Assembly: GCA_963693055.1 (NCBI GenBank)
Contig: OY843751.1
Location: 1,472,001 to 1,536,000, forward strand
Length of the DNA: 64,000 nt
Origin: a bacterium
Lineage (GTDB): Bacteria > Zhuqueibacterota > Zhuqueibacteria > Residuimicrobiales > Krinioviventaceae
Direction: 5' to 3'
The first letter of the stretch is position 1; each line of letters starts with the position of its first letter. This document shows, piece after piece, positions 13,345-17,106 of this stretch. The notes beneath the pieces are model-generated. The model was not told the DNA's origin and did no database searches. It worked only from the letters and a program-made list of their open reading frames with translations. Made by a program: the position numbers and the translations under genes.

Positions 13345-14154
13345 TTATTGAATTATCTGAATCCGATTTGACATTAACTGAGACACGACTACACCAAGAT
13401 AGTTAAATGCTTCATTTTCATTTTGTTTATAAAAACGTGCATTCAGACCCATCTTTTTTAAGGTTTTCAAATTAAACGCCTGCAATGCATCGATGCCTTT
13501 TACATAAATCAAGTGGTTTATAATTTTATCACTTTCACCATTGAAAATCTTTGTATTTTCGTCAAGAACTGTTTTCGCTGATTCTTTGGCATTAATATAT
13601 ATTTCTTTATAAATATCTTCGTTATACATTGGGGGAAATTCACCAGTTTGCTCAAGATATGTAAAAATTGCTATGTGCATAGTGGGGATATCTAGCGGAC
13701 CAAAGGATGTTGTTTCTCCACCGATGATTTCATCCATTCCCAGGCCAAGAATACAACCAGGACCTGTAACTACAGCAGGTACAATCCCAGTTAGTTTACT
13801 GTTTACTTTTGAACGAATTAAACTAACCATCTCTGCTGCTATCTCTAAGTCTCCAGCAACAACCTGGATTAAACAATCGAGGTCCTCAAATGACTGATCT
13901 GATAACAACGATTCTAAATCATCGAGGTGTTTCTCTGACAGCACTGAGGAACCCAGGACCATCGTTAACATCGGTCTTTTTCTGACCTTTACCCAGATAC
14001 TGGAACAATCTTCAAGTAATGAAGCTTCATCTGGTATATTCAGCCCATTTTCAATTGCGAATTGAAGCATCTCCTGCCCTTGTTCAGAATCAACTTTTAT
14101 TATTTTATTTATGTCTTTTTTTATTTTCAACTCTTTACTCCTAGCCCAGATCAA
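13345..14154 (-). CDS. ClpP/SDH(SppA)-fold protein, catalytic Ser apparently absent
   Basis: LDCLIQVVAGD...IVPAVVTGPGCILGLGMDEIIGGETTSFGPLD aligns by eye with SDH-family LDLILHSPGG...VPHYAMSAGTLIALAADEIIMG..SLGPID. Confidence 0.65.
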   Translation of the reverse strand: MIWARSKELKIKKDINKIIKVDSEQGQEMLQFAIENGLNIPDEASLLEDCSSIWVKVRKRPMLTMVLGSSVLSEKHLDDLESLLSDQSFEDLDCLIQVVAGDLEIAAEMVSLIRSKVNSKLTGIVPAVVTGPGCILGLGMDEIIGGETTSFGPLDIPTMHIAIFTYLEQTGEFPPMYNEDIYKEIYINAKESAKTVLDENTKIFNGESDKIINHLIYVKGIDALQAFNLKTLKKMGLNARFYKQNENEAFNYLGVVVSQLMSNRIQIIQ

Positions 14155-14178
14155 ATGACCTGGGCTTTGTTAGTTAAA

Positions 14179-15030
14179 TTAATTTTTATCATCCATACTA
14201 ATAAACCGTACATCCGGACTTTGAATAGAGTCCGGTTGTGCTGATAACTCGTATAAAGTGAAATCAAGATCTTCATCAGCACGATTCACATTAAAACCCA
14301 TCGCCTTTAACTCATCGAATCTAATGAATTGGTTCGGATTCGAAAACCCGGTGACCAGTTTCTTTGCGATTTCATCATTCTCCCCTGATACACAGTTCCC
14401 TATGTCCAGTGCTCTTTTTACAGCATCGATGGTCGCGTTAACAGAATCATAATTATTAGCGGTTTTCTCATCAATGACCTCGCTGGTTTCAGATACGAAA
14501 CTGGCAGCGATGTCCCAGGCATCCTTTACAGATACATTATCACCGCTGGCATCGATGATTCTACACTGTAACGTTTCGATGGCGTCAAATTGCAATTTGT
14601 TCACAACATTGAAACCATTTACAGAAAAGTGAGATATCGTTTTTTCACTATTCTCAGGAGTATTTGGATCATAGCCAGGTGTAATTGGAGTAATTGACCC
14701 AAATGTTCCGAGGGTAATAGAGCTTGATGATAATGCGATTAAGCCAGACAATCTCACAAGAGGTGCTGGTATAATTACATGTAATTCATCCACTGATTTC
14801 TTCAGAATTTCAAGTGTCTGCGAAATTACATCGTAATCCGAGTCATTTGCCTGGATTAAAAGATCAAGTTTCGCTAGTTCGATGCCATGTAAACTGTTAT
14901 ACATCGAATCTACTGTACGCCAATTGATGCCGGACTTTCCGCACATGATTGAGAGTAAGGGGGTTTGTCTTGCATCAGCTATGCTGCGCAAGCCTAATTG
15001 AACTGAGTCTGGTTGTAACATGTTTTTCAT
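14179..15030 (-). CDS. ClpP/SDH(SppA)-fold protein, catalytic Ser apparently absent (paralogue)
   Basis: LDLLIQAND...LHVIIPAPLVRLSGLIALSSSSITLGTFGSITPITP and KKLVTGF...IRFDELKAMGFNV; AAGGAG RBS. Confidence 0.65.
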   Translation of the reverse strand: MKNMLQPDSVQLGLRSIADARQTPLLSIMCGKSGINWRTVDSMYNSLHGIELAKLDLLIQANDSDYDVISQTLEILKKSVDELHVIIPAPLVRLSGLIALSSSSITLGTFGSITPITPGYDPNTPENSEKTISHFSVNGFNVVNKLQFDAIETLQCRIIDASGDNVSVKDAWDIAASFVSETSEVIDEKTANNYDSVNATIDAVKRALDIGNCVSGENDEIAKKLVTGFSNPNQFIRFDELKAMGFNVNRADEDLDFTLYELSAQPDSIQSPDVRFISMDDKN

Positions 15031-15131
15031 GTTAACTCCTTGAGTTTTATAAATATTTATGAACCTTATTGGCTCTCATTTATAAATACAAGGAGAGTTC
15101 ATTTTTTTGGTATTTTTTTTTGGGTTTTTAC

Positions 15132-15160
15132 AAAAAAAATGCCCGATATGTATCGGGCAT
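15132..15160 (-). terminator. Terminator after the sigma gene
   Basis: ATGCCCGATA...TATCGGGCAT hairpin followed by T7 on the minus strand. Confidence 0.7.
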
Positions 15161-15171
15161 ATAAAAGGGGG

Positions 15172-15888
15172 TTATTTGATGATTTTGGAGAGGGTTGCAA
15201 TCATTTCCGGACTTAGTTGGTTCATAACATTCTGAGTGATGCGTTTGCTGGCATCACTAGATTGAATTTCAGCTTTAAACATATCAGTGAATAATGAAAA
15301 TAATCCAAAGCCGAACATCGGTACAGTTGCAGAAACATCTTTGAGATATGGTTTCTTTTTAATCATTTTTTTATATTTTCTCTGAACCCTTCGTTTGATG
15401 TCATATATTTTTAAATTAGTAATCTTCATCCTTTTTGCCATTTCAGAAAATATTTTTTTAGATTCCTCTTCAGCAACTTGTAAATAGATTTCAATGAATT
15501 TTTTCTCTTCTTCATTTAATTCTTTTTTTAGTTCATTTAAGATCAAGTTGTTTGATTCTTTTGATTCATCAAAAATTATCATATCATCATCCTTAATTGA
15601 TTCAAGTTCTTTTTTATTTTTATCATCCTCTTTGGGTTTTTTACCATGATATGTATTTATTTTATTGTATAGTGACCTAAATAAATAGTTCTCAAAGTAA
15701 CCCTCGGTATTTTGGAATTTTTTTACAAGTTCTTTGTCTTCATTAATTTTCTTTAATACACTAAACATTACATTTTGGACAACATCTTCAGCATCTTGTT
15801 TGTTTTTAATACTGAAATTTGCCCTGGCCAGCATCTTTTCATTAATTTTTAGTAAACGTTCTTCCAAAGTAAGAGATTCATGCGCCAA
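15172..15888 (-). CDS. ECF-like sigma-70 factor with C-terminal extension
   Basis: Region 2 DAEDVVQNVMF...FENYLFRSLYN; region 4-like LNEEEKKFI...SEMAKRMKIT...IKRR. Confidence 0.75.
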   Translation of the reverse strand: MAHESLTLEERLLKINEKMLARANFSIKNKQDAEDVVQNVMFSVLKKINEDKELVKKFQNTEGYFENYLFRSLYNKINTYHGKKPKEDDKNKKELESIKDDDMIIFDESKESNNLILNELKKELNEEEKKFIEIYLQVAEEESKKIFSEMAKRMKITNLKIYDIKRRVQRKYKKMIKKKPYLKDVSATVPMFGFGLFSLFTDMFKAEIQSSDASKRITQNVMNQLSPEMIATLSKIIK

Positions 15889-15942
15889 ATTGGCCTCCTT
15901 ATTATAAATACACTGATATTGTTGTTTTTTGGCAAAAAAGTT

Positions 15943-17106
15943 TTATTTACAGTTAAAAATTTGGACAGTTGCTTGACCAAGTCTATTATATATACTAGTA
16001 CTATTTGGTGATGATTTTTCTGTGTATTCAATCGAATCTTTTATTTTCGGAATTTTATCCAAAAACCGTAACAAGATATGTTTTTTAATTGCATAGTTTA
16101 CATTTTGAGATTTCGACATTATTGAGAATATAACACCTAGTAGTCCCCCGGTTTCTTTATCAACCAATGGTCCACCGGAATTCCCCGGTTGAATAGCTGC
16201 ATCAAATTGAAAACTTCTTATATCATCCTGATAACCTGAATTGGAACTGACGATGCCTTGTGTTACTTTGGGAGCAAATCCTTGTGAATCAGGCTGTGGA
16301 TACCCGTATGTTATAACTTCCATACCCAGTTCAGTGTCATCAGTACTAAAATGTAAGCCAATAGATTTTCGATCAATTTGTAACAAGCACAGGTCATAAG
16401 ATTGGTCGCTATAAATTACAGTTGCATTGTAAAAGTGGTTTTGACTCAGAACAATAATTTTATTACTATTTTTTATTACATGGTGATTTGTAATTATGAA
16501 ACCTTCGTTGTTAATGAAAAATCCAGTGCCAAAACTATTTAATTTATTTTCATCTAACATTTCTTCAATTATGAATTTGATATATATTACATTAAAAGTA
16601 TCCGGTGGGAGCTTAAGAGTAGTGATTGCATCTTTGATTGCATCTTTTTCGATTTCACAAAAATTTCCATCTATATGAGCTAATGACAGTAGAAACATTA
16701 TGAAGTTTCTGCTATAATCAACATTATAGTCTATTAAATTTCCATATATTGTAACATAGTCGATAAAAGTTGCATTGTCGTTTATAACATTTTCATAATG
16801 ACTACAAAAATAATTCATTGCCTCGTCATTAAGTTCCAAGCCATCACGTAGGAACTCAACAATTATTTTTATTTCTGAATCACTGACATCACCATCTATG
16901 TTGTTTAATTTTGCCATGCAAGCAATCAGGCATAGAATTGAAGCTTGGTTTTCCCCCAAGTCCTCGAGTTCTTTTTTCTTACTTGATTTTAATACTGATA
17001 AAAGTGCAACAGTAATAATTGTGCCGATTGGACCAATCAATGCACCACCTGTGAAACCTACTGCTCCAGATAAAATCAATCTTTGCCATGATTTCATTTC
17101 ATACAC
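15943..17106 (-). CDS. Membrane-anchored TerB-like domain fused to trypsin-like serine protease
   Basis: N-terminal Gly-rich TM; two TerB metal motifs IDGDVSDSE and IDGNFCEIE; triad ITNHHV / DLCLL / GNSGGP. Confidence 0.88.
   Translation of the reverse strand: MYEMKSWQRLILSGAVGFTGGALIGPIGTIITVALLSVLKSSKKKELEDLGENQASILCLIACMAKLNNIDGDVSDSEIKIIVEFLRDGLELNDEAMNYFCSHYENVINDNATFIDYVTIYGNLIDYNVDYSRNFIMFLLSLAHIDGNFCEIEKDAIKDAITTLKLPPDTFNVIYIKFIIEEMLDENKLNSFGTGFFINNEGFIITNHHVIKNSNKIIVLSQNHFYNATVIYSDQSYDLCLLQIDRKSIGLHFSTDDTELGMEVITYGYPQPDSQGFAPKVTQGIVSSNSGYQDDIRSFQFDAAIQPGNSGGPLVDKETGGLLGVIFSIMSKSQNVNYAIKKHILLRFLDKIPKIKDSIEYTEKSSPNSTSIYNRLGQATVQIFNCK

Follow-up and report, generated by a model that had tools for sequence, protein, structure and literature searches.

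Four co-oriented genes in a bacterial stretch of 64,000 nucleotides (GenBank assembly GCA_963693055.1, contig OY843751.1, positions 1,472,001 to 1,536,000; hereafter the window) raise the question of whether they form one unit and what this unit does. They encode a TerB-trypsin protease, a sigma factor resembling the extracytoplasmic function (ECF) type, and two proteins of the SDH/ClpP fold, SdhA and SdhB, that have lost catalytic residues. All four are minus-strand open reading frames (ORFs) beside an xis-like gene and an integrase gene, as an earlier note on this DNA had described, and that note interpreted them as a four-gene signalling or defence circuit. Our analysis supports the protease and the sigma factor, which carries a C-terminal tail, as a linked pair. 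Together with a private promoter motif and located on integrative elements, this pair is real, rare and apparently undescribed, and the genes that follow it vary between genomes. A sigma regulon with its own promoter motif is very likely. Activation of the sigma factor by proteolytic removal of its tail is the reading that we favour, tentatively and at a little less than an even chance.

The genome carrying the window (G000, 6.5 Mb) was compared with its relatives G101, G113, G124 and G085 and with G231, which belongs to another phylum. Searches within the phylum covered 167 genomes, and those outside it covered 234. Coordinates refer to the window unless another sequence is named.

The protease and the tailed sigma factor

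The protease gene (15943..17106, minus strand) encodes a hydrophobic N-terminal helix, a TerB domain (residues 60-172) and a PDZ-less Trypsin_2 domain (residues 193-325), with both domains scoring above the Pfam cut-off. The catalytic triad H209, D238 and S310, which had been read as intact, is present and invariant in all three homologues. The TerB-trypsin fusion was found in three of the 167 phylum genomes (G000, G101 and G124; profile search, E<=1e-30), and in each of them its gene lies directly upstream of the gene for the tailed sigma factor. This adjacency spans two integrase lineages, and the gap between the two genes leaves space for a promoter motif only. A scan of viral contigs with the protease gave 41 loci in which the match was essentially to the trypsin domain and none of which covered the N-terminal half of TerB; matches on plasmids and in phages were confined to trypsin as well.

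The sigma factor (15172..15888, minus strand) belongs to an unnamed tailed family. It scores below cut-off with both Sigma70_r2 (E 0.0018) and TIGR02937 (34.5 bits, E 1.4e-8; cut-off 42.9), while its possession of regions 2 and 4 only, a DAEDxxQ motif and a region-4 helix-turn-helix (HTH) agrees with a sigma-70 factor of the ECF type, and the G101 and P0008 homologues pass Pfam Sigma70_r2. The tail noticed earlier as an extra C-terminal part with a hydrophobic patch comprises 67 residues after region 4 (15172..15375, minus strand), compared with 65-76 residues in most close relatives. It contains an LKDVSA stretch, an amphipathic patch and terminal helices, and is predicted to be inhibitory and cleavable. 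Membrane anchoring by the patch is ruled out, as its hydropathy (KD19 1.26) is too weak for a membrane helix. Tailed sigma factors of this kind were found in four of the phylum genomes.

A profile search of 1.84 billion representatives yielded a family of 111 proteins (clusters) at E<=1e-10. The end of region 4 could be parsed in 100 of these, all of which have a tail of 50-123 residues; the remaining 11 comprise six visibly tailed proteins, four that are apparently truncated or frameshifted, and one (P0103) that is seemingly tail-less. At least 106 of the 111 members are tailed, a count that is favoured by a query profile containing the tail, but most matches end at region 4; proteins shorter than 200 residues were left out of the tail table and put back for the count of 111. 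The tails combine a Pro/Ser-rich, variable middle part with terminal helices, and in the close clade an L(K/E)(D/N)V(S/A) stretch and the amphipathic patch follow immediately after region 4. The only distant member readable in its genomic context is that of G231, the one genome with a member among the 234 outside the phylum. No anti-sigma candidate adjoins the sigma gene in the five loci read, with the upstream side of the G113 locus missing. Word-indexed single-query searches found no sdhA or sigma relatives beyond G000. Scans of viral contigs with the sigma and sdhB alignments, and of metagenomes with the sdhB pair and the lineage-B sigma factor, revealed no further loci, and the two loci among the matches listed in the species-genome scan were both already known. 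Plasmids gave no match to the sigma factor and one weak generic match with P0036, and phages likewise.

Promoter motif and variable cargo

A bipartite motif, CCAAAAAA-N12-TGTATTTAT, of the general form CCAAA-N15/16-GTAT(T/A), precedes the sigma gene (15904..15932, minus strand) and recurs before sdhA (15082..15110, minus strand). Throughout G000 it occurs exactly at four sites only, with no one-mismatch copies at N12 spacing, and these sites precede the genes for the sigma factor, SdhA, a lone second SdhA copy and a radical SAM protein; there is none before the protease gene. Located at the island's far end, the radical SAM gene is PA0069/Rv2578c/SPL-like, with scores below the cut-offs. Its sole full-length close homologue among the 167 genomes (56%) is in the sigma locus of G113, preceded by the same motif, and a 92-residue fragment of a homologue is found in G105.

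In the relatives, motif-like sites stand before the sigma gene and, after a terminator-like hairpin, before the cargo genes. A matrix derived from three G000 sites gave the top two ranks to the two sites of G113 (33,004 positions) and likewise to the two sites of G124 (75,804 positions), and in G231 the highest of 24,514 scores falls 160 bp from the start of the sigma gene, on a site oriented away from it. ECF sigma factors commonly autoregulate, and together with the motif's position this suggests that it is likely the sigma factor's own promoter; the second copy is the predicted sigma-dependent promoter of the cargo genes. The other two G000 sites lie at the end of a 745-bp non-coding repeat (85%; G000:C1:1540109-1540841 and 2233852-2234588) that follows RHS-like cassettes. 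One copy is followed by the radical SAM gene and the other by the second sdhA, as if the genes had been swapped at the motif.

Downstream of the sigma gene, an intrinsic-terminator-like hairpin with a U tract (15139..15160, minus strand) has similar counterparts 3' of the sigma gene in G101, G113 and G124, and a hairpin without a U tract lies between sdhA and sdhB (14143..14166, minus strand). Because the first of these hairpins and the repeated motif separate the sigma gene from sdhA, the four genes do not constitute one simple operon. The cargo itself differs in each genome: sdhA and sdhB in G000; in G124 a single dead sdhB orthologue (32%) with two further ORFs, xis and integrase; a 150-residue ORF, xis and a different integrase (29%), with no dead SDH gene, in G101; and in G113, where the contig ends inside the sigma gene, the radical SAM gene together with SDH and ClpP genes whose catalytic motifs are intact. 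All four genes occur together in one of the 167 genomes. Therefore, the unit consists of the protease and the sigma factor, its output varies, and SdhA and SdhB are unlikely to be an obligate pair. From the circuit proposed earlier we retain the protease-sigma linkage and, likely in view of the shared motif, control of the dead SDH genes by the sigma factor, and we find no support for a fixed four-gene system with an obligate ClpR-like hetero-oligomer. One of the G124 cargo genes (L023:13830-15665) encodes a 611-residue protein in which a coiled coil is combined with a RelE-like domain at the C-terminus (phrog_1213, E 1e-4), and it overlaps the start of xis.

The two cargo proteins of G000 match the SDH family weakly. 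SdhA (14179..15030, minus strand) matches PF01972 with E 0.0003 and NF047768 with E 0.0005, and SdhB (13345..14130, minus strand) with E 0.003 and 0.0013, respectively, corresponding to 17-20 bits, below the cut-offs of both families (31.3 and 250). The longest sdhB frame reaches 14154 (269 residues); a TTG at 14130, preceded by AGGAG, is the likelier start and yields 261 residues. The nucleophile column holds Ser in 33 of 34 distinct SDH-family proteins of the phylum. SdhA has R93 here and SdhB has Gly (131 in the 269-residue frame), followed by Pro, in agreement with the replacements noted earlier. The His column, H in 33 of the 34 proteins, contains P in SdhA and A in SdhB, an assignment that is less sure because the column adjoins a gapped stretch. 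The glycine loop, also reported as lost, is gone from SdhA, where NDS stands in its place, and half gone from SdhB, which has VAG.

The proposed ClpP/SDH fold was borne out to different degrees. The SdhB model (predicted local distance difference test, pLDDT, 83) has its best matches in SppA and ClpP of the PDB and in viral SDH proteinases, with crotonases among the fold matches, and it is not independent of the SDH assignment because it was built on a 26-row SDH alignment after the exclusion of two rows, an SDH row containing unknown residues and a truncated one. For SdhA, the assignment comes from features alone (0.96 to an SDH cluster), its single-sequence model being unusable (pLDDT 35). 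Searches of PDB sequences with either protein gave nothing significant.

SdhA and SdhB are 23% alike over 98 residues. The lone second sdhA copy (G000:C1:2234627, 94.5%) has no sdhB beside it, and in the core the two copies differ by six synonymous versus two non-synonymous codons (p ~0.003); thus, sdhA looks maintained. SdhB and its G124 orthologue share an invariant H, TGE.PPMY and DEIIGGE and keep the acid at the GPxD position. On the basis of open frames, synonymous excess and conserved SdhB motifs, we reject decay of these genes as pseudogenes. The dead SDH proteins most likely act as non-catalytic binders. After the G124 orthologue, the best match of SdhB is the active SDH of G113 (E 2.8e-10), which suggests descent from an active protease of the same regulon; the SDH tree is unfinished and long branches met in it, so we draw no conclusion from it on where the dead copies came from. 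Another SDH-family protein without Ser and His is encoded in G157 (L099:1363-2508), on a separate branch and unlinked to this sigma factor. In G002, G003 and G006 (L098, L102 and L111-L113), intact SDH protease pairs flank a gene that looks rhomboid-like by eye.

A four-gene defence circuit, in which SdhA and SdhB would form a ClpR-like hetero-oligomer as the effector, would suit the adjacency of the two genes, their common predicted promoter, their mutual likeness and their ClpP/SppA fold, as well as the CRISPR array on the island and the RelE-like domain in the G124 cargo. We nevertheless consider it improbable, as G124 has sdhB but not sdhA, the second G000 locus has sdhA but not sdhB, both are missing from G101, and G113 has active SDH and ClpP instead. 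Moreover, ClpR works in one ring with active ClpP partners, and no active SDH was found in G000 at E<=1e-4. PADLOC-DB 2.0 returned trypsin-domain and HTH cross-hits only, with no model matching the sigma factor, SdhA or SdhB. Very improbable is a switched chemistry, by which the SDH-like proteins would be active in another way within the ClpP/crotonase superfamily, using the Gly at the elbow and the retained acid. The motifs that SdhB shares with its G124 orthologue and the crotonases among its fold matches are compatible with such a role, but the Pro right after the elbow removes what we take, from ClpP and crotonase structures, to be the backbone NH of the oxyanion hole, and SdhA lacks the elbow, the loop and the acid altogether.

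In the switch that we propose, the tail would hold the sigma factor inactive until the protease, predicted to sense stress via its TerB domain, cuts it off. The protease, with no motif before its gene, would be produced independently of the sigma factor and switched on by a signal, and the cut site may be located near the conserved L(K/E)(D/N)V(S/A) just past region 4. HtrA-type proteases favour small aliphatic P1 residues, which fits the proposed cut and does not show it. The freed sigma factor would then amplify its own synthesis from the motif at 15904-15932 and transcribe the cargo from 15082-15110 and from the radical SAM motif at the far end of the island. The cargo would be interchangeable, such that two SDH-derived pseudo-proteases here replace the active SDH and ClpP of G113 and most likely serve as non-catalytic binders, as feedback sinks or decoys, and read-through into xis could tie the switch to excision of the island. 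IutY provides a precedent for activation by removal of a fused tail (PMC8999054, section 3.5.3). A more far-reaching version, which we regard as unlikely, would extend this to a cross-phylum family of self-inhibited sigma factors with a CCAAA/GTAT promoter that integrative elements would have recruited to make a switch operated by one cut. Removal of the tail by a DjlA-like TerB-trypsin sensor would turn on the excisionase and the ClpP-fold pseudo-proteases, the latter acting on ClpP-type proteases of host or phage, either as decoys or as inhibitors.

The switch could also operate with the opposite sign. The tail would then be a degradation handle that lets the protease (or active SDH and ClpP in the case of G113) hold sigma factor levels down, until the protease is blocked or titrated under stress and the sigma factor is shielded by the dead SDH proteins in a positive feedback. 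We find this rather unlikely, as trypsin domains are generally known to cut site-specifically and not processively, and the tail has conserved helices and not a short terminal degron. On the other hand, active SDH and ClpP lie behind the motif in G113, dead proteases under the sigma factor's own promoter suit a dominant-negative role, and Clp proteolysis keeps AntA and sigmaR low (PMC7826278 and PMC8999054).

Several observations weigh against activation by cleavage or against parts of the predicted regulon. The fusion was not found in G113, which is 89% complete and has the contig end inside the sigma gene, nor in the G231 genome, where neither a protease nor an SDH neighbour lies within 12 kb of the sigma gene; the latter makes cleavage by a dedicated neighbour less plausible as a rule for the whole family. 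Part of the linkage is explained by co-inheritance, since the elements of G000 and G124 are related. The terminal helices of distant and close tails resemble each other weakly and unevenly, with four of 14 close tails at <=3/200 shuffles, and the tails of ECF41 work by conformational change and not by cleavage (PMC8999054). With the G000 matrix, the sigma site of G101 ranks only sixth of 39,800 positions and the second site falls outside the top eight, and the minus-strand site facing the sigma gene in G231 is outside the top six. The reverse matrix places the four G000 sites first to fourth genome-wide, but its six non-G000 training sites had been selected by their resemblance to the G000 motif. 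The sites before the second sdhA and the radical SAM gene are not independent because they lie inside one 745-bp repeat. In addition, the hairpin between sdhB and xis carries a U tract.

Some of these points favour a passenger role of the TerB-trypsin protease: the regulon would be real, the tail would be governed by a ligand, a partner or a host protease, and the protease would simply be co-inherited on the element. G231 has a tailed sigma factor and a motif with no protease neighbour, the tails of ECF42 and ECF238 function without cleavage like those of ECF41 (PMC8999054), and there are three linked loci, two of them on related elements. We assign this explanation a low probability, because the fusion is found only directly upstream of this sigma gene, in all three cases, in two integrase lineages and with a gap that fits the motif only.

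For the switch by tail removal, the connection to excision depends on the xis-like gene (12641..13291, minus strand), which encodes an excisionase-like HTH_17 protein, assigned by a domain match, with an N-terminal extension and may be the final gene of a sigma-driven transcript. It is co-oriented behind the cargo in G000, G124 and G101. Its start lies ~20-30 nt past a hairpin in G000 and G101 and overlaps the preceding gene in G124; in G000 this is the terminator-like hairpin after sdhB (13314..13338, minus strand), ~20 nt before the start. In the stretch from 13291 to 14100, no sigma-70-like site was predicted. Because this hairpin has a U tract and no xis-integrase pair was seen in the 14 kb downstream at the G113 locus, the excision link is a lead only.

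The island and its other genes

The module sits at the integrase end of an island of ~60 kb in G000. The tRNA-Arg(TCT) gene (11408..11484, minus strand) forms one end of the island, a copy of its 5' 41 bp lies at G000:C1:1543205-1543245, and G085, of the same genus, has an empty site. An integrase, an attachment-site duplication and an empty site in a relative thus identify an integrative element at the tRNA gene. The tyrosine integrase (11517..12563, minus strand) is 53% identical to that of G124 and 29% to that of G101. The G000 island repeats the 5' half of the tRNA-Arg gene, and the G124 element has the 3' half at its integrase end (L023 17690-17800). A copy of the 3' half is also found at G000:C1:1459738-1459779, 24 kb to the other side, which suggests a second, tandem island. 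A contig comparison over the region yielded no informative joint.

An IS481-like element (17378-18529, three genomic copies) separates the module from divergent genes for a DUF5659 protein and a primase-helicase (PriCT-1, DUF5906; 18568-21211, plus strand), a satellite-like layout with a perfect sigma-70 consensus ahead of these genes (18734-18762). The same island contains a CRISPR array with 28 exact copies of 30-nt repeats (~22815-24677, minus strand), followed by cas2, cas1, cas4, cas3, cas5, cas7, cas8 and cas6-like genes (24778-32940, minus strand; labelled by eye). The promoter motif was not found before these CRISPR/cas genes, and comparison of the spacers with the genome and the loci gave 16-nt matches only. 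Further island genes encode a beta-clamp homologue and a methyltransferase-like protein (33779-38222, minus strand) and, labelled by eye, a type II secretion/pilin-like cluster (47441-57777, plus strand) and an RHS-like protein (59026-63885, plus strand).

On the other side of the tRNA gene, a His-rich ORF of 104 residues (10741-11055, minus strand), without a Pfam match and ending in ...LRAPPFFTFS, lies upstream of what looks by eye like a metal-uptake cluster with a gene for a TonB-receptor-like protein (5900-8290). The RAPP sequence is known to arrest ribosomes. Short ORFs containing RAPP were also seen by eye right after the promoter motif in G101 (L025 ~2275-2345) and G113 (L005 ~14530-14420), which may be chance.

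Comparison with known systems

The individual proteins can each be related to known families. The protease shares its N-terminal hydrophobic helix and TerB domain with the co-chaperone DjlA (NF006948, E 0.00017 over residues 11-174), with a trypsin domain in place of the J domain. SdhA and SdhB resemble the SDH serine proteinases (PF01972, NF047768) in fold and motif order, and differ by their sub-cut-off scores and the loss of catalytic Ser and His. That non-catalytic subunits of the ClpP fold exist is known from ClpR of chloroplasts (PMC6508832); in contrast to ClpR, no active partner ring is encoded alongside the dead SDH proteins in G000 or G124. The occurrence of active SDH and ClpP in one lineage and of dead SDH in another offers a natural series for probing the little-studied SDH proteases and pseudo-enzymes. 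Full-text literature searches, with most subscription papers outside their reach, yielded no description of a TerB-trypsin protease with a tailed sigma factor or of dead SDH proteins.

Sensor-fused proteases located alongside an ECF-like sigma factor are described for Csx29/Csx30/CASP-sigma, CalpL/CalpT/CalpS and SAVED-CHAT/PCaspase/PCc-sigma; in the last of these, PCaspase cleaves PCc-sigma itself (10.1101/2023.06.23.546230 and PMC12642450). The logic of these CRISPR-linked circuits is common to the module and the parts differ, as the sensor here is TerB and the protease is trypsin-like; by Pfam, no type III CRISPR, SAVED, CHAT, Lon or separate anti-sigma component is present among the module genes. 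If the protease cuts the tail, the module would represent a compact stress switch and, outside CRISPR, a minimal relay from protease to transcription that could be used as an orthogonal switch. For IutY (ECF243) of Pseudomonas putida, activation by proteolytic removal of a fused, inhibitory C-terminal part has been shown experimentally, and this extension is a membrane-spanning anti-sigma domain cut by Prc and RseP (PMC8999054, section 3.5.3). The tail described here is short and soluble instead, and the neighbouring gene on the mobile island encodes a candidate for a dedicated protease.

The nearest description of the module is that of ECF115, a group found 100% in Bacillales, with a C-terminal extension of ~70 residues, no anti-sigma factor and a Clp protease gene nearby, for which tail cleavage is proposed only and promoters with ATC at -35 and CGT at -10 are predicted (PMC7826278, Casas-Pastor et al. 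2021). The portion of its supplement that was searched has no match to TerB or SDH, and its later groups or tables may bear on this point. Both sigma factors have tails of similar length and lack an anti-sigma partner. They differ in the promoter, which here is CCAAA/GTAT(T/A), and in the partner. Near the sigma gene, a true ClpP is found in G113 only, dead SDH proteins in G000 and G124, and neither in G101 and G231. The constant partner of the sigma factor here is the TerB-trypsin protease, and the ClpP-fold genes are predicted downstream targets, often catalytically dead. For a mechanism so far only proposed in ECF115, the module would offer a complete three-part switch of protease, tailed sigma factor and defined promoter, and it adds a sigma family of more than 100 clusters with a predicted promoter.

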